Source: an uncultured Bacteroidota bacterium (GTDB lineage Bacteria > Bacteroidota > Bacteroidia > Chitinophagales > Chitinophagaceae). Taken from it: a stretch of 64,000 nt of DNA. The stretch is taken from positions 245 through 64,244 of the forward strand of contig CAIYTT010000014.1 in the NCBI GenBank assembly GCA_903929195.1. Reading direction: 5' to 3'. Below the pieces are notes generated by a model, which worked only from the letters and a program-made list of their open reading frames with translations, made no database searches and was not told the origin of the DNA. A program made the position numbers and the translations under genes. Below are positions 7,904 to 32,645 of this stretch, piece after piece; position 1 is the first letter of the stretch, and each line of letters begins with the position of its first letter.

Positions 7904-8824
7904 ATGAAAAAAAGAATTTTACTTTTCACTTTAGCTGCCGGTATGGGCGGTTTGGTATTAATGAGTAATTCACACGGACCTGCCGGTAATGGCTATAGCT
8001 GCACGGGTGCAGAAACAGATAATGGTAACCCTGCCGGTTGCAGTGCTACCGGTTCAAGTTGCCATGGTTCTGCTGCCACTACAGGCATTACAGTTGCAAT
8101 AGAATTAGACTCAGCCGGCGTACCTACAACACATTACAAAGGCGGTATGACCTATACCGTAAAATTAACCGGTACAAATACCACAAGTAATACCTTACCA
8201 AAATTCGGCTTTCAAATTGCATCTATGTTAGGTACTGCTGCTACAGCTACCCCAACTAACGAGGGTACTTGGTCAACCACATTACCTACAGGTACACACG
8301 AGGTTATGGCATCATCTTCAGGTGGTTCCTTTTTGTTAAATATTGTAGAACAAGCAAGCAGCCAGTTAGCAACTACACTTAGTGGTGCAACAGGTGCTAC
8401 TTATGTTGAATCATTTACTTGGACTGCCCCATCTACCGGTACCGGTACTATTTCTTTTTGGGCAGCGGTAAATGCTGTAAATGCAAATACGAATGCTGAC
8501 GCAGGTGATTTATGGAATACCAACCATGTTACCATTAATGAGTGGGTACATACTGCCAGTGTAAATGAAATAAATAATGAATTTACTATAAGTGCTTTCC
8601 CTAACCCTACAGTAAATACATTAAATATCAATGTAAATAATGTAGGTAATTACGCTGTTGAAGTTTATGACATTAATGGCAGAATTATAGCTACAGAAAA
8701 TATGGAAGTTAGCACCATCAATAGTGTTAAAACCTTAAATACATCAAACTGGATGCCCGGTATGTATCAAGTGGTTATAAGTAAAGATGGAGCATATAAA
8801 GTAGTTTCTGTTGCAAAACAATAA
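7904..8824 (+). CDS. secreted protein of unknown function with a T9SS type A C-terminal sorting domain (paralog 1)
   Basis: Signal peptide. Cys/His motif 'CTGAETDNGNPAGCSATGSSCHGS'. 'PKFGFQIAS' and 'ISFWAAVNAVN' follow. The CTD reads 'ISAFPNPTVNTLNI...GMYQVVISKDG'. Confidence 0.6.
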   Translation: MKKRILLFTLAAGMGGLVLMSNSHGPAGNGYSCTGAETDNGNPAGCSATGSSCHGSAATTGITVAIELDSAGVPTTHYKGGMTYTVKLTGTNTTSNTLPKFGFQIASMLGTAATATPTNEGTWSTTLPTGTHEVMASSSGGSFLLNIVEQASSQLATTLSGATGATYVESFTWTAPSTGTGTISFWAAVNAVNANTNADAGDLWNTNHVTINEWVHTASVNEINNEFTISAFPNPTVNTLNINVNNVGNYAVEVYDINGRIIATENMEVSTINSVKTLNTSNWMPGMYQVVISKDGAYKVVSVAKQ

Positions 8825-8938: not shown

Positions 8939-9838
8939 ATGAATAAAAAAATAGTACTTTTTACAATTATTGCCGGTTTGGCATATATAACATTAAGCAG
9001 TTCTCATTCGGGTGGTGGTGCAGGTAGCGGTTACGATTGCACTGGTGCAGAAACAGGCTTAAGCAATGGTGCAGGTTGTAGTTGCCATGGTTCTTCTGCT
9101 ACAACCGGCATTTCGGTTGCATTAGAATTAGATTCTATGGGCATTGCTACAACACACTATAAAAGAGGTATGACCTATAAGGTTAAAATAACAGGTACAA
9201 ATAATACAACTACAAATTTACCCAAATTTGGTTTCCAAATTGCATCTATTGTGGGTACATCTACACTTGTAACACCTGTAAATGCAGGTACATGGTCCAC
9301 TACTTTACCTACAGGCACGCGCTATACACCGGCAACAGCAACCTATTTTGTAACCAATATGGTAGAACAAAGTATGGCACTTACCGCTACAACCGGTACG
9401 GGTGGAATAGGTACAACTTATATTGATTCTTTTTCTTGGACTGCACCGGCTGCAGGCACCGGTTCTATCTCTTTTTGGGGTGTAGTTAACGCTGTTAATG
9501 GTACAGGTAGTACAGGTGGAGATTCTTGGAATACTACACATATAAACATAGATGAGTGGTCTAGCGTTGGTGTTAAAAATGTAGAAAATAATATAAATGT
9601 AAATGTGTATCCGAATCCGGTAATAAATGTTCTAAATATAAATATGCAAGATGCTATTCCCGGTAATTATTCAGTAGATGTATATGATATGAATGGCAGG
9701 CTAATTGCTACTGATATTATGGAAAATAACAGTGCAAATACCTTGAAGTCTTTAAATACAACAAATTGGATACCTGGTTTATACCAAGTTCTTATAAGTA
9801 AAGACGGTATTTCTAAAGTAATTTCTGTAACCAAATAA
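8939..9838 (+). CDS. secreted protein of unknown function with a T9SS type A CTD (paralog 2)
   Basis: Collinear with the 7904..8824 product: 'CTGAETGLSNGAGCSCHGSS', 'PKFGFQIASI', 'ISFWGVVNAVN'. The CTD reads 'VYPNPVINVLNI...GLYQVLISKDG'. Confidence 0.6.
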   Translation: MNKKIVLFTIIAGLAYITLSSSHSGGGAGSGYDCTGAETGLSNGAGCSCHGSSATTGISVALELDSMGIATTHYKRGMTYKVKITGTNNTTTNLPKFGFQIASIVGTSTLVTPVNAGTWSTTLPTGTRYTPATATYFVTNMVEQSMALTATTGTGGIGTTYIDSFSWTAPAAGTGSISFWGVVNAVNGTGSTGGDSWNTTHINIDEWSSVGVKNVENNINVNVYPNPVINVLNINMQDAIPGNYSVDVYDMNGRLIATDIMENNSANTLKSLNTTNWIPGLYQVLISKDGISKVISVTK

Positions 9839-15942: not shown

Positions 15943-16280
15943 GGCTTATTTTAAATGAATCTAACATTTAAACGCACAAATAAGCTAGCTGCTAAAAAAC
16001 CTTTAGTAAAGTTAGGTCAATATATTGGTTTGAAAACAATATTATTTGGTTAATTCGACTCTAAATTTATATTTTAAAAGGAAACTGCTTTTTTGAGGGA
16101 GATGTAAAATTATGATTAGTTCATTAGGAGAGAATCAATGCAAACCCATTCTTTCAAATGTGCTAATTGGCATTTAGAAATAAGTAATAATACCAATTTT
16201 TGAACATTTATTGGGAACTGAACTAAAATAAATAGCTACTCAATTGCCTGTCATCAATGTATTACAGAGGGAAGTCGAAA

Positions 16281-16320
16281 ATTAATAAGTTTTGTTATTA
16301 TTTCAACAAAACTTATTAAT
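16281..16320 (-). terminator. rho-independent terminator of the 1295-aa adhesin gene
   Basis: 16-bp perfect stem ATTAATAAGTTTTGTT / AACAAAACTTATTAAT with an 8-nt loop. TTTT follows on the minus strand, 25 nt after the stop. Confidence 0.7.
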
Positions 16321-16344
16321 AAACCCTGAATTCAAATTAACCCA

Positions 16345-19300
16345 CTATTCTTTAATCAATTTCTCCACTTTTATTAGCTGCTTATCTTCATTGTAAACGG
16401 ATATAATATAGAGACCTTTTGATAAGGAACTAATATTTATTTCATCAGCATCCGTATAGCTAATAACTGTTTTACCATCAATAGCAGTAATTACGGCATT
16501 ATATTTTACAGGGCAGCTAATATGTATTGTATTGGTAGCCGGATTAGGATAAATACTGATTTCCGAACTATTAATAGTATTACTTACAGATAGATTATAT
16601 AATAAATAGGCACTTGAATAAGCTTCGCAACCATTGGTATCAGTTACTTTTACACGGTAACTGCCATTAATACCGGGTACTACACTGTTAGTAGTTGCAC
16701 CCGGTATGCTTATTGCATTATTATACCATTGGTAGCTTACATAATCGTTTTCGGTACTAAATGTATGCCCGTTCCAATAAACCAATGGGTGTAATGGTGG
16801 ATATACAATAACATTCATAACAGGTGTTGTAGTTGTGCAGCTACCCGGAATACTAACAACGCAGGTAAAATTGCCACCCATACTTGTTACATAGGTACTG
16901 TTTGTTGCCCCAATAATAGCTACACCATTAAGTTTCCACTGGAAATTTAAACCGGTTGTAGAACCGCCAACATCCACTTTTAACAATAAAGAATAGCCCG
17001 AACATAATTTGGTATCACCAACAGCAACAATAATAGGAGAGGAAATAATTGTTACGTTTGTGGTTGCAGATGTTGCCGTGCAGCCACTACCGCTAAGCAC
17101 CGAAACATTATAAAGCCCACTTGCTATTGCTATATAAGAATTGGCAATAGCTCCTGTAATAACAGCACCGTTAAAGAACCATTGATAAGTAGTACCTGCA
17201 ACAGCAGGAACACTTAATGTTACAGTGCCACCCGGACAAAGTATGGTAGAACCCGATGCTGAAATTACTGTATTAGGTAAAGGATTAACTACAACAGAAG
17301 TGCTACTTGATGTATTACTGCAACCGAAACTATTCGTTTCCGTAACATTATAATTACCGGTAGTTACTGCACCGTAAGTACCATTTGTAGCACCTGCTAT
17401 TAAGGTAGTACCATTATACCATTGATAAGAACTTGCAGTGCTGGCAGTTAGGTTTACAAAGCCACCGGCACAAAATGTTAATGCACCGGAAGCCGTTACA
17501 GTAATGGTTGGTATCGGATTTACGGTTACCGTGATTCCGGTAGTGGTAGTAGAACTGCAACCTGCTATATTTATTATTCTAACTGTATAAGTACCGGGAA
17601 CAGTTGCCGTATAACTTGGGGCATTTGCACCCGGTATAGCAAAACCGGTATTATACCATTGATAAGTAAAACCTGCACCCGGAGTGCAGCTTAAAACGAC
17701 ACTCGACCCACTGCAAAAGGTTGTTGGTCCGGAGGCGGTGATAACAGATGACGGTATAGGTATTACAGTAACAGGCGTAGAAATAGATGTAGCTGTGCAA
17801 CCGAAGCTATTGCTTACTATAACATTATAATTACCATTTGTTGTGGCGGTGTAAGATATATTGGTAGCACCAATAATTAATGTTACTCCGTTATACCATT
17901 GGTAGGTATAGCCTGCACCGGCACTTGTAGTAAAAGTAACACTATTTCCTGCACAAAAAGTAGTTACTCCCGAGGCTGTAATTGTTGCAGTAGGTAATGG
18001 GTTTACTGTTACTACAGTAGCTAAAGAAGTATCGGTGCAACCACCTGTGCCTGTAATAACTACTACATAATTGCCTGTGGTTGTTGCTGTATATGCAGCA
18101 GATGCAGCACCTGTAATTAGAGTACCACTATTCAACCATACATACGAATAGCCTGCACCTGTTGTTGCATTAAGTACTACACTGCTACCTGTGCAAAATG
18201 TTGTTGCACCAGCCGGAGTTATAATAGCAGTGGGTACTGTATTTACAGTTACAGTAGTAATAGAAGAGGTAGCACTGCAACCAAAGGTATTGGTAACTGT
18301 AACTTTGTAATTTCCTGAAACCAATGCACTGTAAGAATTATTAGTTGCACCTGCAATAGCTGTTACCCCATTATACCACTCATACGAATAACCCAAACCA
18401 CCAATTGTTGTAAGAATCACACTGTCGCCCGAACAAAATGTAAGCGACCCGGAAGCCGTTACAATTGTAGATGGTAACGGATTTACAGTTACACTAATAC
18501 TCGTGGAAGTATCGGTGCAACCACTGGCGCTTGTTACTACAATAGTATAATTTCCGTTTGTAGTGGCAGTATAAGAAGATGAAACAGCACCGCTAATTGC
18601 AGTACCGCTATTAAACCATTGGTAAGTATAACCTGCACCGCTTACCGCATTTAATACTACACTGCTGCCAGCACAAAAAGTGGTAGGACCGGCTGCTGTA
18701 ATACTTGCGGTTGGCAATGCACTAACTGTAACGGTATAGGTAATAGAAGTAGCACTACAACCCGCACCCGATGTAACCGTAACCTTATAATTGCCGGTTG
18801 TTGTAGCTGTATAAGAGATAGTTGTAGCACCTGCTATTGCTGTAACACCACGATACCATTGATAGCTATAGCCTGCCCCGCTTGTAGCAGTAAGCGTAAC
18901 ACTACCGCCTGCACAAAATGTTAACGAACCGGATAAAGAGATGGTAGTTGTAGGTAATGGATTTACAGTAACAATAACGCCTATTGAAGTATCTATGCAA
19001 CCGCTACCATTTGTAATTACTACTTTATACGTGCCGCTTGTTGTTACTGTATGTGCTGCGGTAACTGCACCGGTAATGAGTGTACTGCCATTAAACCATT
19101 GATAGGTATAACCGGCTCCGGTAGTAGCGTTTAATACAACACTGCCTCCTGAACAAAAAGTAGTAGGCCCGGCAGGAGTTATGACTGCCGTAGGTAATGG
19201 ATTAACAGTTACTACGGTGGATGTTGATGTAGCACTGCAACCAAAACCACTTGTTACTAATACTGAATACGTTCCGTTTGCATTTGTAGTATAGGAAATG

Positions 19301-20232
19301 CTTGTAGCACCTGCAATTGCAGATGCACCATTATACCACTGATAACTATAACCACTGCCTGCTGTGGCTGTAAGGGTTACGCTATCGCCGGCACAAAAGG
19401 TTACAGGGCCGGAAGCTGTAACTGTTGTAAGTGGTAATGGATTTACGATTACAGAATCTATTGCCGTTGCAGAACAACCTAAAGTAGTAGTGCCGGTAAC
19501 AGTATATATTGTTGTACTGCCGGGTGTTGCTGTAACCGTTGCCCCCGTAGTAGCAGAAAGACCGGTTGAAGGCAACCAAGAATAAGTACCACCTGTGCCT
19601 GCACCTGTAGCTGTTAATGACACGCCACTGCCACCGCTGCAAAAGCTTGTAGGCGAAGGACTAACCGATATTGTGGGTGTAGTACAGGTAACATTAATGT
19701 AATATTCACATGCTTCGCCATAATTACCGGTACAAGGTTGCCCGCTGGATAACTCTGACAAAAAAACACGCATGTGTAAATTTACACCTGTTACAACACC
19801 GGTAGTAGGTATTGTAAAATTATAAGTTGTTGCTGTTACATGCGAGCCTAAAGTAATCATAGTACCTGCCAATTCTCCCGGAGAGTAAATACCGTCATTA
19901 TTCCAATCTACATATACGGTTAGGTATCCGGTATATGTACAATATACTCTATTGATACTCATGTTTACAGTTGTGCCTGCCGGTGCAGTAATGCCCTGTG
20001 TAGCAAAATAATTAAAATAAGAACCGGAACAAGACGAACCTGAGTAAGCTATTGTAGAACTTACTGAAGTACCTGATGCAGTTATTGATGTATAATACTC
20101 TGCACTACAGCCAGAAGAAAAAGTTGGGGATGCAGTTGTTGCACAGGTTGCAGTTGCTTTATTTATTGTAGCTAAGAAAAGAAAAGTTACAATTAGGGGT
20201 AAAAATTTTGTAGAAATAGAACTGTTTTTCAT
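16345..20232 (-). CDS. giant T9SS-secreted surface protein: GEVED-like N-terminal domain, about 13 Ig-like repeats, type A CTD
   Basis: Signal peptide. 'YVDWNNDGIYSPGE' is GEVED-like. The repeated ~78-aa unit reads '..TFC.G.SV.L.A..G.GY.YQW(Y/F)N....I.GA....Y.A...G.Y.V.V....GC...S..V.VNP.P'. The CTD reads 'ISIYPNPATNTIHIS...GLYIISV'. Confidence 0.8.
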   Translation of the reverse strand: MKNSSISTKFLPLIVTFLFLATINKATATCATTASPTFSSGCSAEYYTSITASGTSVSSTIAYSGSSCSGSYFNYFATQGITAPAGTTVNMSINRVYCTYTGYLTVYVDWNNDGIYSPGELAGTMITLGSHVTATTYNFTIPTTGVVTGVNLHMRVFLSELSSGQPCTGNYGEACEYYINVTCTTPTISVSPSPTSFCSGGSGVSLTATGAGTGGTYSWLPSTGLSATTGATVTATPGSTTIYTVTGTTTLGCSATAIDSVIVNPLPLTTVTASGPVTFCAGDSVTLTATAGSGYSYQWYNGASAIAGATSISYTTNANGTYSVLVTSGFGCSATSTSTVVTVNPLPTAVITPAGPTTFCSGGSVVLNATTGAGYTYQWFNGSTLITGAVTAAHTVTTSGTYKVVITNGSGCIDTSIGVIVTVNPLPTTTISLSGSLTFCAGGSVTLTATSGAGYSYQWYRGVTAIAGATTISYTATTTGNYKVTVTSGAGCSATSITYTVTVSALPTASITAAGPTTFCAGSSVVLNAVSGAGYTYQWFNSGTAISGAVSSSYTATTNGNYTIVVTSASGCTDTSTSISVTVNPLPSTIVTASGSLTFCSGDSVILTTIGGLGYSYEWYNGVTAIAGATNNSYSALVSGNYKVTVTNTFGCSATSSITTVTVNTVPTAIITPAGATTFCTGSSVVLNATTGAGYSYVWLNSGTLITGAASAAYTATTTGNYVVVITGTGGCTDTSLATVVTVNPLPTATITASGVTTFCAGNSVTFTTSAGAGYTYQWYNGVTLIIGATNISYTATTNGNYNVIVSNSFGCTATSISTPVTVIPIPSSVITASGPTTFCSGSSVVLSCTPGAGFTYQWYNTGFAIPGANAPSYTATVPGTYTVRIINIAGCSSTTTTGITVTVNPIPTITVTASGALTFCAGGFVNLTASTASSYQWYNGTTLIAGATNGTYGAVTTGNYNVTETNSFGCSNTSSSTSVVVNPLPNTVISASGSTILCPGGTVTLSVPAVAGTTYQWFFNGAVITGAIANSYIAIASGLYNVSVLSGSGCTATSATTNVTIISSPIIVAVGDTKLCSGYSLLLKVDVGGSTTGLNFQWKLNGVAIIGATNSTYVTSMGGNFTCVVSIPGSCTTTTPVMNVIVYPPLHPLVYWNGHTFSTENDYVSYQWYNNAISIPGATTNSVVPGINGSYRVKVTDTNGCEAYSSAYLLYNLSVSNTINSSEISIYPNPATNTIHISCPVKYNAVITAIDGKTVISYTDADEINISSLSKGLYIISVYNEDKQLIKVEKLIKE
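16815..19680 (-). repeat. coding tandem array of about 12-13 units of ~234 bp (Ig-like modules, alternating A/B subtypes)
   Basis: The 'Y.YQWYNG..AIAGAT' and 'Y.YQWFN.GT.I.GAV' motifs recur about every 78 aa. Confidence 0.75.
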
Positions 20233-20612: not shown

Positions 20613-20804
20613 CATATTTACGCCTTTGTTGGTGTTTTCACCAACAAATAGTTTGCCCCCCCCGATGACGAGTACAATCCATACTAACTATGATATGTTG
20701 TTTGTTGATGAAAACACCAACAAAGGCAATGTAAGATAAAAAACATAACTATCTTGTGTTATGCTGTTGTTTGTTGGTGAAAACACCAACAAAGGCACAA
20801 ATGG
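20613..20804 (+). repeat. triple-palindrome element, copy A (MITE-like)
   Basis: Three copies of GCC+TTTGTTGGTGTTTTCACCAACAAA: 20622-20648 (+), 20701-20727 (inverted, one mismatch) and 20770-20796 (inverted). A conserved core GATGACGAGTACAATCC lies between the first two copies. A C8 tract sits at 20656-20663. Confidence 0.85.
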
Positions 20805-21287
20805 TTATTGTAGTTAGATATTCAATTTCTGTGCCACCTTATAAATTTCAATCAAATCTTCATACAATTGGTTCGACATTTCCCCGCTTGGGACTACTAA
20901 ACTTAACCGATGAAAAGAGTATTAGCTTGTGGGCTTTTTTGTTTTTTCAAAGTACCCCTTTTACGGGAGACCATTTTGAACTGGAACTATCCCGTTGCAA
21001 TTCTAATAATTTTCAAGTTTTCCTTGATGAGTTCTCTAAATTAAACCACGAAGAATTTAACCGGAGTAAAAACGGCAAGAAAAATAAGGTGGAAAATGAA
21101 ACGCGATTTTACCAATAACTACATAAATCTATTGATGAAGTAAGTGAATTTATTAAAAATCAAGTTCGTAAATTAACAAATAGAAATGTTGTAAATATAT
21201 GTGGATTTGAGTATATTATTTCAAGTATATTTTGGACTAATATGTATTAAGCATAAGTATAAATAATACTTTAAACCCTAACTCCGC

Positions 21288-22760
21288 TTAATTTAGGTAG
21301 TCTATTTTTAGTTTATTGAAGAGTGCCGTAGTTTTAAGTGACATTTCGGAAATAACCCATTTATCATTTATTTTGAGTTTAAATATGCTTTTAGACATTT
21401 CAACAATGTCCATTGGTGAGTATTTAGAAAGCAAATTGGCTTGTTTGAGCAAAATGAATAGCTTATAGTAGGCAATCATAGCGATAAAATTAGCCATTAG
21501 CCAACCTTCAAGTACATATCTGTCCTGCATATAGGTTTTGTCAGCCTTGAGAAAATTTTTATAGGCATCAAACATAATTTCAATTTCATTTCTTTGTTTG
21601 TAAATTTCGTAAAGTTCTTGAGGTGTTACCGCATTTGCTAAGTGACTTACCAATGTTAAAGTGCCAAACCGGTTGATTTTTTCGTAAAAATCAGTTTCAT
21701 TATATTTGTCAGGATGTGTTTTTATGCGTAAAATATAATCACTTTGTTCCTCGACCCCTAAACGTTCGTCAAGGTAAGTAACTATTTTTTTCCCTTCATT
21801 CTCATATTCATAGTACCAGATGATGCGTTTCTGATAAGAAAAATATTTTTTGATTTTTTGCTTAAAATTACCCTCCTGCATGGGCTTGTAGTCTATTAAT
21901 GTATTGTTTCGGTACAATGGGATGATATAATGTAGCTTATTGGCTTGTAAGTCGGCTGTGTTCTGTTTACTGTAAAAACCTTTGTCGGCAATAAAAACAA
22001 TATTGGGTGTACCAAGTTCCTCCACACATTTTTTCATTGATTTGCCATCGGTTATATTGCCATTAATGAGCCTGTAGTAAACCGGTTGTTTGAGTTGTGC
22101 GGAAAAAATATACATGAGCCGTATTTGCGGGTCGAATTGGTGTTGTGGATTATAACCCTTTGCATTGACATGGATATTTTCTGACAAGGTATGAATGTGT
22201 GTAGAATCAATCATTACAAAATTATCGGCAACGGATTGGGCTAGGCCAATCCTGCTTTTCATCCATTCCAACAGTTTGTTCCTGTTTTCCCCCGCAAACT
22301 TAAGTGTAGCACTTATTTTCTTATCGTCCATCCCTGATTTTGCCCATTGCTCAGAGCTGTAATCATGCGCATGGAGGTAAGGTATCCTTTTGAGTGGGCA
22401 TTGGTATCCAAAACGCATCATGGATACACATAAGAGTGTCTCAATAACATCGGTATCAAATAAGCTAAGCAGACTCTTCAAATCCTCCGCCAACAGCAAA
22501 CTAAACAGCCGGTAAAGACCATAGGTTTTAATATCCACCTTGGGTAGCTGATCCGCTTTGCTCTTCAAAGCCAACTTGTCTGAGACAATGAAACCATCAT
22601 CTTCTGTAATACGACCCAACAATTGCTTCGTTATCTTGTCAGTTCGCTTTTTCTCAGGGTTGTATTTATATTCAACCGCATATTTATAGTATCCTCCTGA
22701 TACTAATTTGATTTCTGTTTTTCGCTCTTTATAGGGAAGAACCCATTGTGGTAAACTCAT
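21288..22760 (-). CDS. DDE transposase (IS4 superfamily, IS1634-like)
   Basis: 490 aa with 'VMIDSTHI' (D), 'FIADKGFYS' (D) and 'YKQRNEIEIMFDAYKN' (E with the YREK-like signature). Confidence 0.8.
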   Translation of the reverse strand: MSLPQWVLPYKERKTEIKLVSGGYYKYAVEYKYNPEKKRTDKITKQLLGRITEDDGFIVSDKLALKSKADQLPKVDIKTYGLYRLFSLLLAEDLKSLLSLFDTDVIETLLCVSMMRFGYQCPLKRIPYLHAHDYSSEQWAKSGMDDKKISATLKFAGENRNKLLEWMKSRIGLAQSVADNFVMIDSTHIHTLSENIHVNAKGYNPQHQFDPQIRLMYIFSAQLKQPVYYRLINGNITDGKSMKKCVEELGTPNIVFIADKGFYSKQNTADLQANKLHYIIPLYRNNTLIDYKPMQEGNFKQKIKKYFSYQKRIIWYYEYENEGKKIVTYLDERLGVEEQSDYILRIKTHPDKYNETDFYEKINRFGTLTLVSHLANAVTPQELYEIYKQRNEIEIMFDAYKNFLKADKTYMQDRYVLEGWLMANFIAMIAYYKLFILLKQANLLSKYSPMDIVEMSKSIFKLKINDKWVISEMSLKTTALFNKLKIDYLN

Positions 22761-22763
22761 AGA

Positions 22764-22779
22764 CTACCTAATTAGGTAG
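22764..22779 (-). promoter_or_regulatory. 16-bp perfect palindrome immediately upstream of the transposase start codon
   Basis: CTACCTAATTAGGTAG is its own reverse complement and ends 3 nt before the ATG at 22760. Its position suits a translation-occluding hairpin or a transposase/operator site. Confidence 0.35.
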
Positions 22780-22926
22780 CTCAAAAATACAAAAAAATTG
22801 GAGCAAACAAATGCTGCTCCTCATTTTTTTTATTTAGACGGGGTAAATTTTGCGGAGTTAGGGTTTAAAGGTAAAAACAAACGCACTGTAAGGTAATAAA
22901 GAAATTGATTATGGTACAATAATTAT

Positions 22927-22971
22927 ACTGCCCATGTAACCCTTATTACCAATTAGGATGCCATGGGCAGT
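22927..22971 (-). terminator. possible terminator of rny (long-loop hairpin)
   Basis: 10-bp stem ACTGCCCATG / CATGGGCAGT with a 25-nt loop, about 20 nt after the rny stop. The large loop lowers confidence. Confidence 0.35.
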
Positions 22972-22991
22972 TTAATATATTATTAAATTAT

Positions 22992-24560
22992 TTATCTTGC
23001 AATGCTCACTGCTCTCAATTCTCTAATAACCGTAATTTTTATTTGACCCGGATATTGCATTTCTTTTTGTATTTTATCAGCTATTTCGAAAGATAAACGT
23101 TGGCTGTCGGCATCTGTTATTTTTTCTGCTTCTACAATAACTCTTAATTCCCTACCTGCTTGTATCGCATACGCTTTTTCTACTCCTGTGTAGGCTAATG
23201 CAAGGTTTTCCAAGTCTTTAATACGTTGCAGATAGCTTTGCATCATTTCCCTTCTTGCACCCGGTCTCGCACCACTAATGGCATCGCAAGCCTGCACTAT
23301 TGGCGAAATAATATACAACATTTCCATTTCATCATGGTGGGCACCAATGGCATTAACAATAGAAGGATGTTCACCACATCTTTCTGCAATTTTAGCACCA
23401 AGCAATGCATGGCTCAACTCTGTTTCTTCGTCAGGTACTTTACCAATATCATGAAGTAAACCGGCTCTTTTTGCAAGTTTCACCACTTTTTGCCCTAAAC
23501 CAAGTTCGGCAGCCATAATACCACAGAGGTTAGCTGTTTCTTTAGAGTGCATTAATAGATTCTGTCCATAAGAAGACCGGAAACGCATTTTACCAACTAA
23601 ACGTACCAAATCTTTATGTAAACCATGCACGCCCAATTCAATAATAGTGCGTTCGCCAATTTCCATTATTTGTTCTTCCAGTTGTTTCTTTGTTTTTTCC
23701 ACAACCTCTTCAATACGAGCAGGGTGTATTCTGCCATCTTGTACCAATCGTTGTAAAGAAAGCCGTGCTATTTCTCTGCGTAGTGGATCGAAACAGCTGA
23801 GTACAATTGCTTCAGGGGTGTCGTCAATTATTAAATCTACACCGGTAGCCGCTTCAATAGCACGAATATTTCTACCTTCCCTACCTATTATTTGTCCTTT
23901 TATTTCGTCGCTTTCCAGATTAAATACGGTTATAGCATTTTCAATAGTCTGTTCTGCTGCAACCCTCTGTATAGATTGAATAATAATCTTTTTCGCTTCT
24001 TTATTGGCATTTACCTTAGCCTCTTCCATTATGTCTTTTACATAAGCCATAGCGCGGGTTCGTGCTTCTTCTTTTACCAATTCCATCAATTCAAGTTTGG
24101 CTTGTTCGGCAGACAAACCAGCTACTTTTTCTAATCTTTTAACATGCTCCTCGTGATGGCGTTCTAATTCTATTTTCTTTATATTAAAAGATTCCGTTTG
24201 TCTTTCCAGATTTTCTTTTAATGTTTCATTCTCTTGAATTTGTTTTTGTAAAGCGGCTGTTTTATCACTTATAGATTGTTGCTGTTGTTTTATTTTATTT
24301 TCAGCTTCGGCTAATTTTTGATTTCTAACGGTAACCTCTTTGTCATGCGTGCTTTTAAGTTGTAAAAATTGTTCTTTTGCTTCAAGTATTTTCTTCTCTT
24401 TTAAAGTTTCTGCCATGATTGTGGCATCTTCTATTGTTTTTTTTGCTAATGCGTCAGCATCTTCTATTTCCTTTTTTGTATTTTTAGCAAAAATTAATTT
24501 ACCCAGAAATATGCCAATAGGTACTCCTGCTATCGCAATGATAGCTAATATTATTTCCAT
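22992..24560 (-). CDS. rny: ribonuclease Y
   Basis: N-terminal TM helix, a long coiled coil, a KH domain ('[13 protein letters not shown]') and an HD domain ('LLHDIGK', 'AHHD'). Confidence 0.9.
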
Positions 24561-24755
24561 TTTGTTTTGTAGCTTTTAAGTGAAAAATGTTCATTACCAA
24601 TAAAAATAAGCAATAAAAAATAATACATATATATGCTTACTATTTAAGCGTGCTAAGTTAAGAAAAGATTTTTGGAAAAATTTACTTCACATTATACATA
24701 TATTACCATAATGTTAAAAACTTCTCTTTTAGTTACTGATAGATAAATTATCTTT

Positions 24756-25559
24756 ATGGCATTTATTATACCAATGATGATTTTAGCCTATTCTTTTTGC
24801 AATGTTACCTTAATGCCTATCAGAAGCGAACCCTCGCATAAAGCTGAACAAATTAGCCAATTATTATATGGAGAAAGAGCTGAAATACAACATGTAAACA
24901 GTAATGAATGGGCTAAAATAAAATGTGCAAACGATGGTTATGAGGGTTGGTGTAAAGTTGCCCAATTAACCATAATAACTTACAAAGAATACAAAAAAAC
25001 AATTAAATATATTTCAAATTCTAATTTTAATTCATTATTGTTAAATAATTACAAACTTTACTTGCCTTTAGGTTGTGAGCTTACCTATTTAAAAAAATTG
25101 AATGCTGAATTTAAAATAATTAAATTTAAAGGCAAAAAGACAGATATAACAAAAACAATATTTAAAATTGAGGATGTTATAAATGCTGCATCTAATTACA
25201 TGAATGCACCTTATCAATGGGGCGGCAAAAGTGTTGTGGGTATCGATTGTTCGGGATTAACACAAATGGCTTATAAATTATGTAATTATTTATTGCCACG
25301 AGATGCAAGCCAGCAAGCTAATGTTGGTATTTTAGTAGATTTTCTGCAAAATAGCACTTGTGGTGATTTAGCTTTTTTTGATGATAAAGACGGCAAAATT
25401 ATTCATGTTGGCATACTTATAGATAACCAAACAATTTTACATGCAAGCGATACCGCAGGCAAAGTAACAATAGATAAAATAGACCAAGGTGGCATTATTA
25501 GCACAAAACAAAAAAAGAGAACACATAAGTTAAGATTCGTAAAAAGAATATTTAATTGA
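24756..25559 (+). CDS. C40 (NlpC/P60) peptidase with an N-terminal SH3b-like domain
   Basis: 'CNVTLMPIRSEPSHKAEQISQLLYGE' is SH3b-like. 'GIDCSGLTQMAYK' holds the catalytic Cys and 'HVGILID' the His. A TATCTTTA box at 24747-24754 suggests the true start may be the ATG at 24774. Confidence 0.8.
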   Translation: MAFIIPMMILAYSFCNVTLMPIRSEPSHKAEQISQLLYGERAEIQHVNSNEWAKIKCANDGYEGWCKVAQLTIITYKEYKKTIKYISNSNFNSLLLNNYKLYLPLGCELTYLKKLNAEFKIIKFKGKKTDITKTIFKIEDVINAASNYMNAPYQWGGKSVVGIDCSGLTQMAYKLCNYLLPRDASQQANVGILVDFLQNSTCGDLAFFDDKDGKIIHVGILIDNQTILHASDTAGKVTIDKIDQGGIISTKQKKRTHKLRFVKRIFN

Positions 25560-25564
25560 ATCTA

Positions 25565-25623
25565 TTCTTACTTACCAATTCCCAGTAGGAAAAGCAGGAA
25601 GAACTTGCTATTGCAAAATTCTA
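25565..25623 (+). repeat. 97-bp repeat family, degenerate partial copy (DR0)
   Basis: 'attcttacttaccaattcccagtaggaaaagcaggaagaac...aattcta' aligns with the 3' half of DR1 and DR2. Confidence 0.5.
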
Positions 25624-26112
25624 CAAACCCCGATGATGTTTTGTAATTTGCCAAGGCATTATAAAATAATATCACCCGTATTGAAACAACCCACTGTTAC
25701 TAAAAATTTATTTGGGCAGTTTATTTTTTGTAGTTTATTGATAATGAGGTACTTGTAAAAATAAAACTGCTCATTAATTGCCCGTTTGTGTTTCATAGTG
25801 AGTTATTTTTTTTTGTTGCGTTATTGGGTTTGGGTGTAAGGTATTTTATTTTGGAGTAGCGTTTTAAAGTTTAATTGTACCTATTTAAGGTTGGTTATGG
25901 GGTATTTGTGTTGTTGGGCATAGGTTTGAGGGTGAGTGTTTTTGTGTGATTTTAGTTTAACTCCAATTCCTTTTAATCAATTACAACGCCCAACTTTAGC
26001 GAAATATGGGGTTAAACGGCAGCGGATGCTACAAGATTTTAGGTCGAAGATAGAACCTTTGACCAATTTGGTCTCCTAAACCATCCGGAACTAAAAGAGG
26101 GTTGTAACCTTT

Positions 26113-26185
26113 GCTGGTAAACATTCTTCTGGATTTTCCTCCGGGAATCCGGAAGTGAGAATGAACTCCTCCGAACGTATTTACC
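26113..26185 (-). repeat. 97-bp repeat family, inverted diverged copy (DRinv)
   Basis: Its reverse complement aligns with DR1/DR2 ('aatacgttc', 'cttcc.gattccc.g.ggaaaatc.agaagaa'). The hairpin at 26126-26155 is CTTCTGGATT / AATCCGGAAG. Confidence 0.6.
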
Positions 26186-26227
26186 TTAACAAAGCTTAAT
26201 GCAAGTAATGAAATTCTTAGCTATATA

Positions 26228-26324
26228 CCTTTTCATTTAACATCGGTTCTTTGAATACGTTCATAGAACGGCTTTATTTATTCTTCCTGATTCCCTGCGG
26301 AAAATCAGGAAGAACGGGAATTCT
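26228..26324 (+). repeat. 97-bp repeat family, copy DR1
   Basis: About 94% identical (6 differences by eye) to 27402-27498. It contains the hairpin CGTTCATAGAACG and a 10-bp stem, CTTCCTGATT (26283-26292) / AATCAGGAAG (26303-26312). It abuts the stop codon of the 26325..26981 gene. Confidence 0.85.
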
Positions 26325-26981
26325 CTACTTTACAATGTAATAACTTTGTAATTCCCAAACTCTACGCTTTATTGAGTCTAAAGGTTTATTTAGTATCATT
26401 TTTATAAATCCCACATCTGCATTAAAATAAAATGTATCTATATAAGGTGTTACATAAAAATATTTTCTTTCTACATGGCTTATTTCAGCAACATTCGTAT
26501 AATCATGTCCATTTTGCGTATATGTACCTATTATATTTAGTACAAACCCGGAATCGTGTATTGATTCAATTGGATTTATATTACCAATATTAAAAGGATA
26601 ATAAGAAAATATTTCATCTTTATTTATAACGCTAATATAGATTTCGTTACTAAAAAAAATCAGACTCCAATCTACAGAATCTAAATGATTTGCTTTAGAA
26701 CTATAATTTTTAATTCCCATTTCAATTTGTTCATAATTGTTAGAAGTAGAACCGTGTCCTGTTGATGCTGTTCCCATTGCATCATGATTATTGCTATTAT
26801 AAACATAAAAAGTATCAATTTTTCCACTTAAATCATCTCTCATAATCCAATAAGTACCATCTTTCCAATAAAATGCTGCTTTTAATGCTGCATTTACAGG
26901 TGTAAAAGTACTTTTTTGTTGTTGGCATTTTGTTAACAATAATATAACAAACGCACTTAATAAAAGTATTGTGTATTTCAT
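26325..26981 (-). CDS. hypothetical secreted/lipoprotein
   Basis: Signal peptide with a lipobox-like 'LLLTKC'. Coding-like composition over 218 aa. I recognise no family. Confidence 0.5.
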   Translation of the reverse strand: MKYTILLLSAFVILLLTKCQQQKSTFTPVNAALKAAFYWKDGTYWIMRDDLSGKIDTFYVYNSNNHDAMGTASTGHGSTSNNYEQIEMGIKNYSSKANHLDSVDWSLIFFSNEIYISVINKDEIFSYYPFNIGNINPIESIHDSGFVLNIIGTYTQNGHDYTNVAEISHVERKYFYVTPYIDTFYFNADVGFIKMILNKPLDSIKRRVWELQSYYIVK

Positions 26982-27085
26982 AAACTTTTTATTTTTGGGT
27001 TAATTTATCTAACATTGCACTCAATTTATCATTTTGCTTTTGTTGTTGTATAGCGTAAAAAGGAAGCTCTTCAATTTTTTGCAGC

Positions 27086-27276
27086 AGTTTTGTGCCTTTG
27101 TTGGTGTTTTCACCGACAAACAACATCATAATCCAAAATAGCTAAGTTTTTTATCTTTACATTCTCTTTGTTGGTGTTTTCATAAACAAAAACTTATTAT
27201 AATTAAAATGGATTATACTCGTCATCGGAAGAACAAACTATTTGTTGGTGAAAACACCAACAAAGGCGTAATAGTA
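27086..27276 (-). repeat. triple-palindrome element, copy B (inverted relative to copy A)
   Basis: Palindromes at 27094-27120, 27164-27190 (degenerate) and 27241-27267. The reverse complement of copy A aligns along the whole length at roughly 85% by eye, including the core GGATT(A/G)TACTCGTCATCGG. Confidence 0.85.
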
Positions 27277-27401
27277 GTTAAAGAGCTAAGTATAATTAAG
27301 TAAAAAAAGAGTTTTTTCATTATTTAATAATTCTTAAATAAAATTAACGAATTATTTTTAAAAAAATAGAGTGTTATTAAAAATTTAATATTGGGGGTCT
27401 A

Positions 27402-27498
27402 TCTTTTCATTTAGCCTAAGTTCTTTGAATACGTTCATAGAACGGCTTTATTTATACTTCCTGATTCCCTGCGGAAAATCAGGAAGAACGGGAATTCT
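27402..27498 (+). repeat. 97-bp repeat family, copy DR2
   Basis: Direct repeat of 26228-26324. Hairpin arms lie at 27457-27466 and 27477-27486. Confidence 0.85.
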
Positions 27499-27737: not shown

Positions 27738-30700
27738 CTACCTATTTATACTAAAACTGATTACATCATTTTCGTTTGCAGATTTAATATGTAATAGATA
27801 AATGCCGTTTGCCAAATTACTGTTTAGGTAAATTTTCTTTTTCAATTCACCGTCTGTAATCAGAGCGGCATCACTATACACTACCTGCCCTACTACATCT
27901 GTAATTTGTAATTCCACCTCTTTATCTCCACTTATTATGTTACCTGTAATTACAAATGTTCCTTTATTAGGATTAGGTATTAATTGAATATCGCTTTTAC
28001 CGTTATTTACCTGATTAACACCCAGTTTACCAACTTCCATAATAATCCAATTGAAAGAAGCAACTCCTTCGCAAGCATTACCATGTGTTGTAACGATGCA
28101 GCTTACAGAATCAAAATTAGTAATGTAAGGTGTTGCAAAACGGGTAGATGTTGCACCCCAAATTGGAGTACTGTTTATTAACCATTGGTAGGTAGGTGCC
28201 GGACCTGCATTGGTAGTAACAACATAAAAAGTATCTATCTGATTCTGCATTATTAAGGCTCTTCCGTCAACCATAACATGTAATACCGGTACAAGATGCA
28301 ATTTAATACCTTGTTTTGCAGTATCAGACGGTATAGGACAATGATAACTACTTACCATTACACAACTCATAGAATCACCCTCAGCAGGTTGGTAGGTATA
28401 AGAAGTACCGAAACCTGCAAGAGAACCGTTTTTATACCAATAGAAACTTGGAGTATAACCCGGATAAGTAGGATTAACAGTTAATGTTATCGGGCTGCCT
28501 TCACAAACGGAATCACCCGGATTTAAATTTAGATTTACCAAAGGTGTTTCAAATGGTTTTACCGTCATTACCATTGTTTTTACTGCCGTATCCGGGAAAA
28601 CGCAACCCGAACTGCTTGTAAGTTTACAGGTTACAATATCACCGTTAGCGGGTGTATAACTAAATGTACTACCTGTACCTACTAAAGTCCAGTTTACACT
28701 CCATTGTATAAGTGGTGTAGAACCACCATGTGTAACGGAAGCGTTAAAGGTATTATTTACCCCTAAACAGGTAGTATCGCCACCGCTTGATACGAAATCA
28801 ACAGTAGGAACTGCCGGAGGAGAAACCGAAACAGTAACAGAGTTGCTTGCGGTATCCGGCAATGCACAAGTTGCATTGCTAATAATTGCACATCTTACAA
28901 TATCTCCATTACCCGGATAATTAGAAAAAGTATCGTTTGTACTTACAACCGTGCCGTTTACAGTCCATTGATAAGTAGTTGCAGAGCCACCACTAGTAGT
29001 AACAGCGGTATAGACCGCTCTTACTCCCGGACATAAAAACAAATTGGGATATACAGCAATAGAAACCGTAGGTATTACTGTTGAATTTACTGTAATTGTT
29101 GTGTTTGCAACCGTAGTACCACAACTATTGGTAACGGAATACGAAATAGTATCTATACCTGCTACAAAGCCGGTTACTAAGCAAGAACCCGAAATAGAAG
29201 CACAGATATTACTTCTTGTCCAGGTACCACCTGTTACTGTACTTGCCAATGCAATAGAATAACCCGAACAAACCGTATTTGAACCTGTAATAGTACCGGC
29301 AGATGGCGGAGCTAAAACAAATACCGGTTTGGTAGCAAAAGTAGTTCCGCAGATATTAGTTACAGTATATGTAATTATATCCATGCCGGTAGCAACACCG
29401 GTTACTATACCTGCACCGGAAACCGTTGCATAAGCATTGCTACAACTCCATGTACCACCTGTAGTACTGTCAGTAAGTACTATTGACGAACCGGTACAAA
29501 CAGTATCTAAACCATTTACCGGTGCGGCAGGGCGGCTCACATTTATAGTAATTGATGCCGTTGATGAACCACATGCATTGGTAACAGAATAAGCTATTGC
29601 AGTAGTACCTTGCGAAACACCGGTAACAAGACCGCTGGTAGCTATTACACTTGCTATTGTCGGATTAACACTTGTCCAGCTACCACCGCTCACTGAATCT
29701 GTAAGTGTTTCTGTAGCACCCACACATAAGTTGGAAGTACCACTTATAGATGCCGCAAGAGTGCTAACGGTAACATTTACGGTTTGGCTTGTTGTGCCGC
29801 AAACATTGGTTACTGTATAAGTAATTGTAGCTACACCTCTTGAAATACCGGTAACTACTCCACCTGCTACAGTAGCAACTGTAGTACTACTACTGCTCCA
29901 AGCACCACCTGTTGTACTGTCTGTTAATGTAGTTGTAGAACCAACACAAACAGAATCGGTACCTAATATTACTGCTGCCGGTCTGTTTACGGTTACGGTA
30001 GTTGTAGAACTGGTAGTACCGCAACTATTGGTTACCGTATAATTAATGGTTGTAGTACCCTGACTTATAGCTGTAACAATACCACTTGTAGCCCCAATGC
30101 TTGCTATTAAAGGGTTAGAACTTGTCCAAGTGCCACCTGTAGCCGGATTGCTTAATGTACTTGTACTGCCTACGCATAATGTTGTAGTACCTGCAATGGC
30201 ACCTGCTGCTGTATTTACGGTAACTGTAACTGTATGGCTTGATGTACCGCAAGCATTAGTAACCGTATAAGTTATGGTTGCCGTGCCGTTTGCAACACCG
30301 GTAACAACACCACCAACTACACTTGCAACACCAGGGTTACTGCTGCTCCATGTACCACCTGTTGTGCTGTCTGTTAAGGTTGTTGTTGCTCCTACACATA
30401 CGGAGTCTGTACCTAATATAATTGCCGCTGTACGGTTTACAGTTACGGTTGTTGTAGATGTAGTAGTACCGCAACTATTGGTAAGAGAATAAATAATGGT
30501 AGTCGTTCCCTGTGCAACACCGGTTACAATACCGGTTGTAGAACCTATTGTAGCAATTAGGGGGTTAGAACTTGTCCATGTGCCACCTGTAGCCGGATTG
30601 GATAAGGTACTTGTACTACCTACGCATAATGTTGTAGTACCTGCAATGGCACCGGCTGCCGTATTTACAGTAACAGTAACTGTTTGGCTCGATGTACCGC

Positions 30701-32645
30701 AAGCATTCGTAACCGTATATGTTATAGTAGCGGTTCCTGTTGCAACACCTGTAACCACACCGCCTGCCACACTTGCCACACCCGGGTTACTACTGCTCCA
30801 TGTACCGCCTGTAGTACTGTCTGTTAAGGTTGTTGTTGCTCCTACACATACGGAGTCGGTACCTAATATAATTGCCGCTGTACGGTTTACAGTTACGGTT
30901 GTTGTAGATGTTGTTGTACCGCAACTATTAGTAAGAGAATAAATAATGGTTGCTGTACCTTGAGAAATACCGGTTACAATACCTGTTGTAGAAGCAATGG
31001 TAGCAATTAATGGATTGGAACTTGTCCAAGTACCACCTGTAGTTGTTGTAGATAAAGTACTTGTAGCACCCACACACAAAGTTGTTGTTCCGAGTACTGC
31101 TGCGGCTATTGGGTCAACTGTTACTGTTGTAGTTGCAGCAGTAGTACCACAAGCATTGGTTATTGTATAAGAAATAACCGAAGTACCGGCAGCAACTCCC
31201 GTAACCACTCCGGTTGTATTTACAGTAGCAACACCTGTGCTTACACTACTCCATGTGCCACCTGCGGTAGCATCGGTTAATGCCGTTGTGCTACCCGCAC
31301 ATACTACAGTAGTGCCTGTAATAGCGGCAACCGTAGGTACTGTTATTACTGTTAACAATGCAGGTGTAGAAGTAGCAGTGCCATAAGCATTTGTTGCTAT
31401 CATTTGGTAAGCATAACCGTTCTCGGCAGTAGTAGCACCTGTTATAGTAAGCGTATTGGTAGTAAAGGAAGCACCATAAATACCACCGTCCATACCGGTT
31501 GTTATATTAAACCATGGTCCACCGGTACCGGTAGTACTTCTTTGCCATTGGTAGGTAGGTGTTGGCGCCCCGGTTGCGGTTGCCGTAAATGTGGTTGAAG
31601 TACCCGAACAAATAGTTTGATTGGTAGGACTTGATGTAATTGAAGGTGGTGTTGTAGGTGATGCAATGGTTTGTGTATTTGAAGCTGTTGCAGAACCTGA
31701 CAAGGTTAAACAAGTAGTACTAAAAGTGAAATTAGATGCTACAGACGGTATGGAAGCTAAAGAAATAGTATGCCCCGAAGTTGCACCGGCAGCTACATCG
31801 GCAGTAATATAAATATAGCTTGCACCAACCGGTAAAGTCTGTGCTAAGCCAGTAAATGAATTACTACTACCCGTAACACCAGGTGTAATTGTACTTAATA
31901 AAGTTGCAGAACCCGTACTGAAAGTGGAAGACGTAGAGTACCAGCATTTTAAATTGGTTATATCGGTTGTGGGTATGTAAGTTCCCAAGGTATTTACGGT
32001 TACATCTGTTAATGTTGTTGCCGAAGTACCCACCGTCATATTAAAGGTTTGTAATAAATTATTTGTGGAACTGGGTGCAATTGTACCTGCTGCGGGGCTG
32101 GTACTGCTTATACTTACAGTAGAAATTCCCGAGGGTGTACCTGCAAAACCACCATCGCTAACAATACGATTGGTACCTGTACCCGCACAAGAATAAGGAA
32201 TAATTTTTACAAGAAAAGTAGCTAAATTATTACAAGATGTGGGAAAAGTAGCAGTAATAGTAGTAATAGTGCAACAACCGGTACAAGGTGTAAGGGCGTA
32301 GCTACCATAATATATATAAGATGTACCGCCATTGATACTATAATAGATATCGCCACCGGTAGGACCGGTGTTTGATGATGTATTATTTGCTGCCATAGTA
32401 ATATTACTATACCCGCATGTGCTTAATGTATATAACCAATAGGCAGATGAACCGTCCCAGCCGGTACTATAATACCCCGAAACACAGGTACCTGTGGCTG
32501 TAGGGCTTATGGTTGACCAACTTAATGTACTTGCTATTGCTGTTGCAGATGCTTTCTCGCTAAAAAATTGAATACTAAAAAACAAACTTAAAAAAGCTAT
32601 CGTTTTGATAGATTTAAAGAACTTTTTATTAAATAAATATCTCAT
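27738..32645 (-). CDS. giant T9SS-secreted surface protein with a BIG2-like Ig repeat array and a type A CTD
   Basis: Signal peptide. At least 12 modules match '..C.G.T..L......GG.W.SSN...A.V...G.VTG...G...I.Y.V.N.CGT......V.V' (bacterial Ig-like group 2 pattern). Four '..Y.W..NG....G..F.Y.P..GD.V.C...S...C' modules follow. The CTD reads 'IQLIPNPNKGTFVI...GIYLLHIKS'. Confidence 0.8.
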   Translation of the reverse strand: MRYLFNKKFFKSIKTIAFLSLFFSIQFFSEKASATAIASTLSWSTISPTATGTCVSGYYSTGWDGSSAYWLYTLSTCGYSNITMAANNTSSNTGPTGGDIYYSINGGTSYIYYGSYALTPCTGCCTITTITATFPTSCNNLATFLVKIIPYSCAGTGTNRIVSDGGFAGTPSGISTVSISSTSPAAGTIAPSSTNNLLQTFNMTVGTSATTLTDVTVNTLGTYIPTTDITNLKCWYSTSSTFSTGSATLLSTITPGVTGSSNSFTGLAQTLPVGASYIYITADVAAGATSGHTISLASIPSVASNFTFSTTCLTLSGSATASNTQTIASPTTPPSITSSPTNQTICSGTSTTFTATATGAPTPTYQWQRSTTGTGGPWFNITTGMDGGIYGASFTTNTLTITGATTAENGYAYQMIATNAYGTATSTPALLTVITVPTVAAITGTTVVCAGSTTALTDATAGGTWSSVSTGVATVNTTGVVTGVAAGTSVISYTITNACGTTAATTTVTVDPIAAAVLGTTTLCVGATSTLSTTTTGGTWTSSNPLIATIASTTGIVTGISQGTATIIYSLTNSCGTTTSTTTVTVNRTAAIILGTDSVCVGATTTLTDSTTGGTWSSSNPGVASVAGGVVTGVATGTATITYTVTNACGTSSQTVTVTVNTAAGAIAGTTTLCVGSTSTLSNPATGGTWTSSNPLIATIGSTTGIVTGVAQGTTTIIYSLTNSCGTTTSTTTVTVNRTAAIILGTDSVCVGATTTLTDSTTGGTWSSSNPGVASVVGGVVTGVANGTATITYTVTNACGTSSHTVTVTVNTAAGAIAGTTTLCVGSTSTLSNPATGGTWTSSNPLIASIGATSGIVTAISQGTTTINYTVTNSCGTTSSTTTVTVNRPAAVILGTDSVCVGSTTTLTDSTTGGAWSSSSTTVATVAGGVVTGISRGVATITYTVTNVCGTTSQTVNVTVSTLAASISGTSNLCVGATETLTDSVSGGSWTSVNPTIASVIATSGLVTGVSQGTTAIAYSVTNACGSSTASITINVSRPAAPVNGLDTVCTGSSIVLTDSTTGGTWSCSNAYATVSGAGIVTGVATGMDIITYTVTNICGTTFATKPVFVLAPPSAGTITGSNTVCSGYSIALASTVTGGTWTRSNICASISGSCLVTGFVAGIDTISYSVTNSCGTTVANTTITVNSTVIPTVSIAVYPNLFLCPGVRAVYTAVTTSGGSATTYQWTVNGTVVSTNDTFSNYPGNGDIVRCAIISNATCALPDTASNSVTVSVSPPAVPTVDFVSSGGDTTCLGVNNTFNASVTHGGSTPLIQWSVNWTLVGTGSTFSYTPANGDIVTCKLTSSSGCVFPDTAVKTMVMTVKPFETPLVNLNLNPGDSVCEGSPITLTVNPTYPGYTPSFYWYKNGSLAGFGTSYTYQPAEGDSMSCVMVSSYHCPIPSDTAKQGIKLHLVPVLHVMVDGRALIMQNQIDTFYVVTTNAGPAPTYQWLINSTPIWGATSTRFATPYITNFDSVSCIVTTHGNACEGVASFNWIIMEVGKLGVNQVNNGKSDIQLIPNPNKGTFVITGNIISGDKEVELQITDVVGQVVYSDAALITDGELKKKIYLNSNLANGIYLLHIKSANENDVISFSINR
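29090..31350 (-). repeat. coding tandem array of BIG2-like modules, including a 450-bp super-repeat with near-identical copies
   Basis: 30001-, 30451- and 30901- align at a 450-bp offset. 30371-30492 versus 30821-30942 is almost identical. The antisense ORFs 30274..30492 and 30496..30942 end in the same ~66 aa. Confidence 0.85.

Follow-up and report, generated by a model that had tools for sequence, protein, structure and literature searches.

Two inverted repeat clusters flanking an rny-containing block in an uncultured Chitinophagaceae bacterium resemble REP clusters of a Bacteroidota RAYT system

A 64,000-nucleotide stretch of contig CAIYTT010000014.1 (assembly GCA_903929195.1), from an uncultured Bacteroidota bacterium of the family Chitinophagaceae and referred to here as the window, carries two copies, A and B, of a 186-nt element built from three palindromes. 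The copies lie in inverted orientation around a 6.3-kb block that includes rny, the gene for RNase Y. The initial annotation proposed that the pair could drive inversion of this block or, alternatively, act as regulatory modules of two nearby genes for secreted proteins, a 1295-aa type IX secretion system (T9SS) adhesin and a 218-aa putative lipoprotein. We consider it highly likely that A and B are instead two copies of a lineage-specific cluster of repetitive extragenic palindromes (REPs), similar to bacterial interspersed mosaic elements (BIMEs) and to REP doublets forming hairpins (REPINs), of the class associated with subclass 2.6 REP-associated tyrosine transposases (RAYTs) in Bacteroidota, with a mechanism modeled on that of E. 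coli. The unit REP is 5'-GCC followed by TTTGTTGGTG, a 4-nt T-rich loop, and CACCAACAAA.

The case rests on the anatomy of the repeats, the wide distribution of the REP and its extragenic bias, its linkage to RAYT genes elsewhere, and its match to a published REP, each of which we document below. On this view A and B lie inverted to each other incidentally; they neither form a programmed switch nor serve as dedicated operators of the adhesin and 218-aa genes. For genome annotation, what looked like an inversion switch enclosing an essential gene thus becomes an ordinary pair of REP clusters. A and B add to a known kind of repeat, the REP/BIME-like clusters that go with subclass 2.6 RAYTs in Bacteroidota, and the first interpretation is largely replaced.

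Anatomy of the two copies

Pairwise alignment of copy A (20617..20802, plus strand) with the reverse complement of copy B (27088..27272, minus strand) revealed identity at 162 of 185 columns (87.6%), with 3 gap columns and longest perfect runs of 38 and 26 nt, bearing out the earlier by-eye estimate that the two are reverse complements at about 85% along their full length. Both the inter-palindrome linker CCGATGACGAGTA(C/T)AATCC and the second spacer are common to A and B and lie inside the aligned match, as had been noted. Identity in the sequences outside A and B is only 31-38%, and the ends of the match are therefore abrupt, in agreement with the earlier description of a discrete element rather than a general duplication.

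The recurring unit of the element is the 24-nt palindrome TTTGTTGGTG-N4-CACCAACAAA, present three times in each copy. Allowing up to 3 mismatches, we counted 6 occurrences in the window against 0.00 expected from 100 shuffles, and no further copy was present anywhere else in these 64 kb, which are the part of the source genome that this count of 6 REPs covers.

The polarity of copy A, 186 nt in length, is REP, linker, inverted REP, linker, inverted REP. Its first palindrome, P1 (20622..20648, plus strand), matches the palindrome exactly and is a REP in the 5'-GCC orientation, consisting of a GCC foot, a hairpin with a 10-bp stem, and a TTTT loop; the asymmetry of its foot and loop agrees with a sequence logo derived from 196 sites, described in the next section. 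Linker 1 (20649..20700, 52 nt, unstranded) contains the core CCGATGACGAGTACAATCC and is conserved only between A and B. P2 (20701..20727, minus strand) is an inverted REP that reads stem, AAAA, stem, and then GGC on the plus strand, forming a REPIN-like inverted doublet with P1. P3 (20770..20796, minus strand) is a second inverted REP, oriented like P2 and with the same AAAA loop and GGC. In the repeat mapping, P3 and the short sequences beside it make up a 33-nt unit that repeats the P2 unit in tandem at 97% identity.

Copy B is the reverse complement of this arrangement. P3' (27094..27120, plus strand) has the GCC foot and hairpin with 1 stem mismatch; P2' (27164..27190, plus strand) is decayed, its foot now reading CTC and its stem carrying 2 mismatches; and P1' (27241..27267, minus strand) is a perfect hairpin followed by GGC on the plus strand. 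Read on the minus strand, P1' scores like a terminator hairpin, and it is positioned upstream of the 218-aa gene.

Folded as single-stranded DNA, copy A reached -42.1 kcal/mol (z -7.5 against shuffled controls) and copy B -34.9 kcal/mol (z -6.4). The predicted pairings include P1 with P2 as one long hairpin (the minimum free energy structure), P1 with P3 (the centroid structure), or each palindrome folded on itself. A sigma-70 promoter scan gave matches inside the elements, but its matches were no more numerous than in shuffles, and the promoter consensus of Bacteroidota differs from that of sigma-70.

The stability of these folds, together with the terminal inverted repeats that P1 and P3 supply (33 nt, 94% identical), is also what would be expected of a miniature inverted-repeat transposable element (MITE) derived from the insertion sequence (IS) inside the block, or of a structured small-RNA gene. 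We give these readings almost no credence. The terminal repeats of the IS, beginning CTTTAAACCCTAACTCCGC, are unrelated to the palindrome, which excludes a MITE of the resident IS and led us to reject the IS as the parent of the element. No matching bases that could be a target-site duplication stand beside A or B in their alignment, and, against both readings, no other genome compared has kept the linkers. A search of Rfam returned 0 matches at gathering thresholds, and in E-value mode yielded only sub-threshold eukaryotic microRNA-precursor hairpins, so that a structured RNA has no support.

The palindrome and its transposase in other genomes

An exact-match scan with TTTGTTGGTGWWWWCACCAACAAA over one genome per species (596 Gb) identified at least 113 loci (L001-L113), where by our own estimate about 0.1 chance matches are expected. 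Among the matches listed, nearly all are titled Bacteroidota, and one record is titled "bacterium" only. They come from Chitinophagaceae (Taibaiella, Niabella, Chitinophaga, Parafilimonas), Mucilaginibacter, Pedobacter, many Cytophagales, and Saprospiraceae, as well as one Flavobacteriaceae, one Bacteroidales, and two Ignavibacteria metagenome-assembled genomes (MAGs). Several of these genomes have at least 3-5 separate contigs with the palindrome.

To characterize the unit, we built a logo from 196 sites among the listed matches, oriented by their loop. It reads TTTGTTGGTG-A[A/T]AA-CACCAACAAA-GGC followed by purines, and the other side is unconserved. The 3' tail (G.82, G.75, C.59) corresponds to a 5' GCC foot on the opposite strand, and the A-rich loop is found on one strand only. 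The unit is thus a hairpin whose foot is confined to one strand, as REP sequences have. Among the same matches, 10 of 195 sites fall within long open reading frames (ORFs), against a background ORF coverage of 70%, indicating an extragenic bias.

The listed matches comprise 94 singles, 14 inverted (RF) doublets, 11 direct (FF) doublets, and larger clusters, including four RFF triplets that share the polarity of the window element (L023, L055, L071, and L107). When these triplets were aligned with A and B, the palindromes alone were conserved between genomes and the linkers were not. The linkers and flanks gave no BLAST match in any of the other loci compared. A metagenome scan with the linker core CCGATGACGAGTAYAATCC gave 13 matches, none with a REP nearby and most of them GC-rich, which we therefore treated as chance matches. 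Neither the linker next to a REP nor the 186-nt composite was found in the other loci or in the metagenome scan. A literature search with the palindrome sequence retrieved unrelated primer and oligonucleotide matches only.

Comparison of the ORFs lying up to 2.5 kb from a site with one another turned up a single recurrent gene family among the loci listed. It occurs at 13 of them, and for most members the distance to a palindrome is 0-325 nt. Its product is a protein of about 172 aa (172-181) with the motifs NHIHLIWQ and YIHxNPV...YxYSS. Along its entire length it matches the NCBIfam model for the "REP-associated tyrosine transposase" (NF047646; E 1e-20 to 9e-20). A profile of 7 members gave a single match in the PDB, 4ER8, the E. 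coli TnpA-REP (E 6e-6), in which the HUH and Tyr motifs line up. Four of the RAYT genes (L007, L057, L073, and L107) are bracketed in the form GCC-REP...gene...REP-GGC, with the gene on either strand, and the polarity of P1...P2 in the window is the same as that of these bracketing REPs. REP-adjacent RAYTs from different orders are about 52-57% identical to each other.

These distributions bear on a further reading, in which a dimeric transcription factor would recognize the palindromes as operators, and the triple arrays would serve both secreted-protein genes as common regulatory modules. A perfect 10+10 palindrome with a 4-bp center would suit such a protein, and A and B are each found upstream of a minus-strand gene whose product is exported. 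The start of copy A is 385 nt from the start codon of the adhesin gene (20232) and that of copy B 107 nt from the start codon of the 218-aa gene (26981), in line with the approximately 390 and 105 bp reported initially. We nevertheless regard operator arrays as very improbable. Apart from the RAYT, no gene family is common to the neighbors in at least 113 other loci, a symmetric dimer operator does not need the strand-asymmetric foot and loop, and A and B have opposite orientations and unequal distances (385 vs 107 nt) relative to their genes. T9SS sorting domains occur in at least 8 genes of the window, so that a secreted-protein neighbor is expected by chance. With the palindrome at at least 113 unrelated extragenic loci and a RAYT gene as its sole recurrent neighbor, the initial suggestion of a module specific to the adhesin and 218-aa genes was not sustained.

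The REP and its partner correspond closely to a published group. Quentin et al. (2018; PMC6006769) define RAYT subclass 2.6 (group 5 of Bertels) by NH[LIV]H, WQ, YIH[QN]NP, and an SS tail, with a median length of 179 aa and members mostly from Bacteroidetes, and report that atypical secondary structures, which recur at other places in the genome, flank these genes. The partner proteins found here carry the same signature at about 172-181 aa. For Runella slithyformis (AEI49282.1), Table S1 of that study gives the REP as GCC-GTTGTTGGTG-TTAT-CACCAACAAC, which has the same 10-bp stem, 4-nt T-rich loop, and 5' GCC foot as ours; it differs in the base closing the stem, T here and G there, and loci with the G variant are present in our set as well. 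Other subclass 2.6 entries in the table have unrelated REPs that differ from species to species (PMC6006769). Published REP-RAYT pairs in general likewise vary between species. In contrast to the atypical, weakly structured REPs described for the subclass, the stem here is strong and perfect. The RAYT is known from other genomes, and the 186-nt composite of three REPs with its linkers is specific to this lineage.

In E. coli, a REP and an inverted REP form BIMEs that have conserved linkers and amplify in tandem, REPs enclose the transposase gene in a "REPtron", and TnpA-REP requires the hairpin and 5' foot for cleavage and strand transfer in vitro (Ton-Hoang et al. 2012; PMC3333891). The system studied here shares the alternation of REP and inverted REP, linkers kept between copies, tandem units, a transposase gene within inverted REPs, and an extragenic location. 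It has no sequence similarity to the E. coli REPs, and its RAYT belongs to clade 2.6 rather than 2.2. As in Pseudomonas REPINs (Bertels and Rainey 2011; PMC3116915), P1 and P2 form an inverted doublet that can fold as one long hairpin and that was apparently copied as a unit with its spacer. Unlike those doublets, the element is a 186-nt triplet, with two copies so far.

By analogy with E. coli TnpA-REP, an HUH/Tyr enzyme would bind the hairpin and 5' foot on single-stranded DNA, cut near the hairpin, and then join strands. Such cutting and joining could multiply REPs, make inverted doublets such as P1 with P2, and add tandem units such as P3 from P2, and a whole cluster with its linkers might occasionally be copied to a new extragenic site. 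Copy B would then be a second insertion, by chance inverted and 6.3 kb from A, that has since accumulated about 12% divergence and the decay of P2'. RAYT-mediated mobility in the source genome is a proposal drawn from that E. coli enzyme.

Several points weigh against assigning A and B to a RAYT system. The RAYT-like proteins score 71-74 bits, just under the NF047646 equivalog cutoff of 80, and their match to Pfam Y1_Tnp is weak, below gathering. A tblastn search detected no RAYT gene in the 64-kb window. The GCC foot and perfect stem differ from the classical GTAG foot and the mismatched stem that the E. coli enzyme requires (PMC3333891), and the mechanism is for this reason carried over only by analogy. 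Finally, segmental duplication, not RAYT-mediated copying, could account for the linkers that A and B have in common.

Any effect of these elements on the host is most likely the generic one of a REP, e.g. a hairpin barrier to transcription or mRNA decay. One candidate for such a barrier is P1' in copy B, which lies upstream of the 218-aa gene.

The signature GCC-TTTGTTGGTG-N4-CACCAACAAA provides a simple recognizer of this REP class in Bacteroidota genomes and MAGs, where REP repeats probably break short-read assemblies. We also observed that the same hairpin and GCC foot are nearly unchanged across many Bacteroidota families, including members of Chitinophagales, Sphingobacteriales, and Cytophagales, and two Ignavibacteria MAGs. 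Descriptions of REPIN-RAYT systems usually present them as lineage-specific and inherited vertically. One REP hairpin shared over several orders, with transposases about 52-57% identical, is of modest interest for REPIN-RAYT co-evolution; it is a side result and opens no long-standing question.

The inverted arrangement and the rny locus

The initial annotation described the inverted pair as a substrate for inversion. In principle 186-nt repeats could recombine, and this much of the claim holds; we found no sign of a switch, with no recombinase identified among the ORFs scanned and the breakpoints of homology to relatives lying away from A and B. Pfam searches of the large ORFs over most of the window, up to its last ~2 kb, found no serine or tyrosine recombinase, only the DDE transposase of the IS. 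The annotation further proposed that inversion would exchange the sequences upstream of the two secreted-protein genes. Recombination between A and B would leave the adhesin gene with its own 385 nt and the 218-aa gene with its own 107 nt of native upstream DNA, and little promoter swapping would therefore result.

A programmed invertible element, in which a site-specific invertase switches the adhesin and lipoprotein genes by phase variation, is extremely improbable on this evidence. What the pair shares with invertible DNA segments is geometry only, namely inverted repeats flanking a segment near surface-protein genes, and Bacteroidota do use invertible promoters. Here, however, the repeats are long and come from a dispersed REP family, with REP clusters at hundreds of unrelated sites, the 6.3-kb segment contains housekeeping genes including that for RNase Y as well as an IS, no invertase gene was found in the Pfam scans, and the genes retain their upstream DNA in either orientation.

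We next compared synteny with relatives, a check proposed in the initial annotation. The source organism is related to Taibaiella and Flavipsychrobacter. The only part of the block common to relatives is the divergent pair of rny and the NlpC/P60 gene (22941..25557, minus strand), which has 90.7% DNA identity to the corresponding segments of the two nearest relatives, L114 and L115 (rny 97-98% identical, DNA ~90%). The order in both relatives is panC(+), P60(-), rny(+), a 0.8-kb stretch, DUF5723(-), and pdxJ(-). In the window, DUF5723-pdxJ (39570-41912) is oriented as in L114 and L115, whereas the rny-P60 segment is inverted and lies 14 kb away rather than 0.8 kb. Homology with the relatives ends at 22941 and 25557, which is 2.1 and 1.5 kb inside A and B, respectively, and the REPs, the IS, the 218-aa gene, and the adhesin genes are all missing from this locus in L114 and L115. 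The comparison thus returned the opposite orientation that an inversion would leave, with breakpoints that are not at A or B and no REPs in the relatives.

Three relatives at a greater distance also keep the divergent P60/rny pair, with flanks that differ in every genome, and no REPs are present at their P60/rny loci. Since the flanks differ in every relative, orientation against one flank says little, and the opposite orientation of rny-P60, judged from sequence comparison, is compatible with a past inversion without demonstrating one between A and B.

If RecA-dependent homologous recombination occasionally inverted the 6.3-kb block, or if the pair is the relic of such an event, this would amount to a structural polymorphism and not a regulated switch. 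The 186-nt inverted repeats with 87.6% identity and perfect runs of 38 and 26 nt would provide for it, REPs are recombination hot spots, and the orientation of P60/rny relative to DUF5723-pdxJ is opposite in the nearest relatives. Against this, the relatives' homology stops at 22941/25557 and not at A/B, the REPs, IS, 218-aa gene, and adhesins are absent there, the pair lies 14 kb from DUF5723 here compared to 0.8 kb, and the flanks vary in every relative examined. Recombination is also inefficient at 12% divergence with short perfect runs. On balance we judge such an inversion unlikely. We regard as doubtful a joint reading in which the REP class is unusually ancient or mobile, the 186-nt triplet is the replicating unit of this lineage, and A and B mediated the inversion and relocation of rny-P60. 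Two REP clusters that came to lie in inverted orientation by chance remain our preferred account.

The gene-less 0.8-kb stretch between rny and DUF5723 in the nearest relatives (L114 11785-12367; L115 3087-3670) is 75% similar to window positions 15943-16521, which comprise the 3' end of the 1295-aa adhesin gene and its downstream region. This stretch looks like the relic of an adhesin gene and points to gain or loss of large T9SS genes at the locus.

Exact look-ups of rny, P60, and both adhesins returned no other contig. The look-up with the 218-aa protein gave the only other contig from the same population, an 871-nt metagenome contig (L133) that is 100% identical to 26213-27065 and crosses neither junction. 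Its positions 1-18 are a remnant of an Illumina adapter, CGTGTGCTCTTCCGATCT, an assembly artefact in the public record.

Neighboring genes and further repeats

ORF and Pfam analysis of the region gave the order, on the minus strand, iPGM, a 1434-aa CheB/CheR/histidine-kinase hybrid, the 1295-aa T9SS adhesin, and copy A, followed by the IS, rny (minus), NlpC/P60 (plus), the 218-aa gene (minus), copy B, and a 1635-aa gene (minus). The content of the bracketed block is as the initial annotation had it, with an IS, rny, a C40 peptidase, and a lipoprotein gene. The adhesin gene spans 16345-20232 (minus strand, start codon at 20232), rny 22992-24560 (minus), the NlpC/P60 gene 24756-25559 (plus), and the gene for the 1635-aa T9SS Ig-repeat protein 27738-32645 (minus). 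The 218-aa protein (26325-26981, minus strand) has no Pfam match; its N-terminus, MKYTILLLSAFVILLLTKC, is signal-peptide-like and ends in Cys19. The window as a whole has about 33% G+C and no tRNA genes, and in addition to the T9SS-domain genes it contains a PorP/SprF gene at 52550-53593.

The IS (21269..22870, minus strand) encodes a 490-aa DDE_Tnp_1 transposase between 36-nt imperfect terminal inverted repeats (21269-21304 and 22835-22870). It is inserted about 70 nt past the end of the rny homology with relatives and 466 nt from copy A, outside that copy, and no obvious target-site duplication was read at its ends.

A 99-nt direct repeat with abrupt ends (26226-26324 and 27400-27498, 94% identical) brackets the 218-aa gene and REP copy B. 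One repeat copy lies directly after the stop codon of the 218-aa gene; the other is downstream of the 1635-aa gene, at a distance of 240 nt. The repeat contains a hairpin with a 10-bp stem, CTTCCTGATT...AATCAGGAAG, and a second small hairpin. We did not find it among the other loci compared. It may be a shared terminator module or have been left by the duplication or insertion of 1.2 kb.

The 1434-aa protein, encoded by 11638-15942 immediately downstream of the adhesin gene, is a fusion of CheB methylesterase, CheR methyltransferase, PAS, HisKA/HATPase, and receiver domains. The ORF at 42070-43140, whose 356-aa product has no Pfam match, includes at least 13 tandem 21-nt repeats (42779-43156) encoding a Lys/Glu-rich, heptad-like repeat (…KKVLEEN…). 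Two adjacent paralogous genes for small proteins with a T9SS C-terminal domain (7904-8824 and 8939-9838) share a 256-nt repeat at 74% identity. Internal Ig-domain repeats account for 17036-19452 of the 1295-aa gene, with a 240-nt period, and for 29078-31325 of the 1635-aa gene, with 225/450-nt periods.

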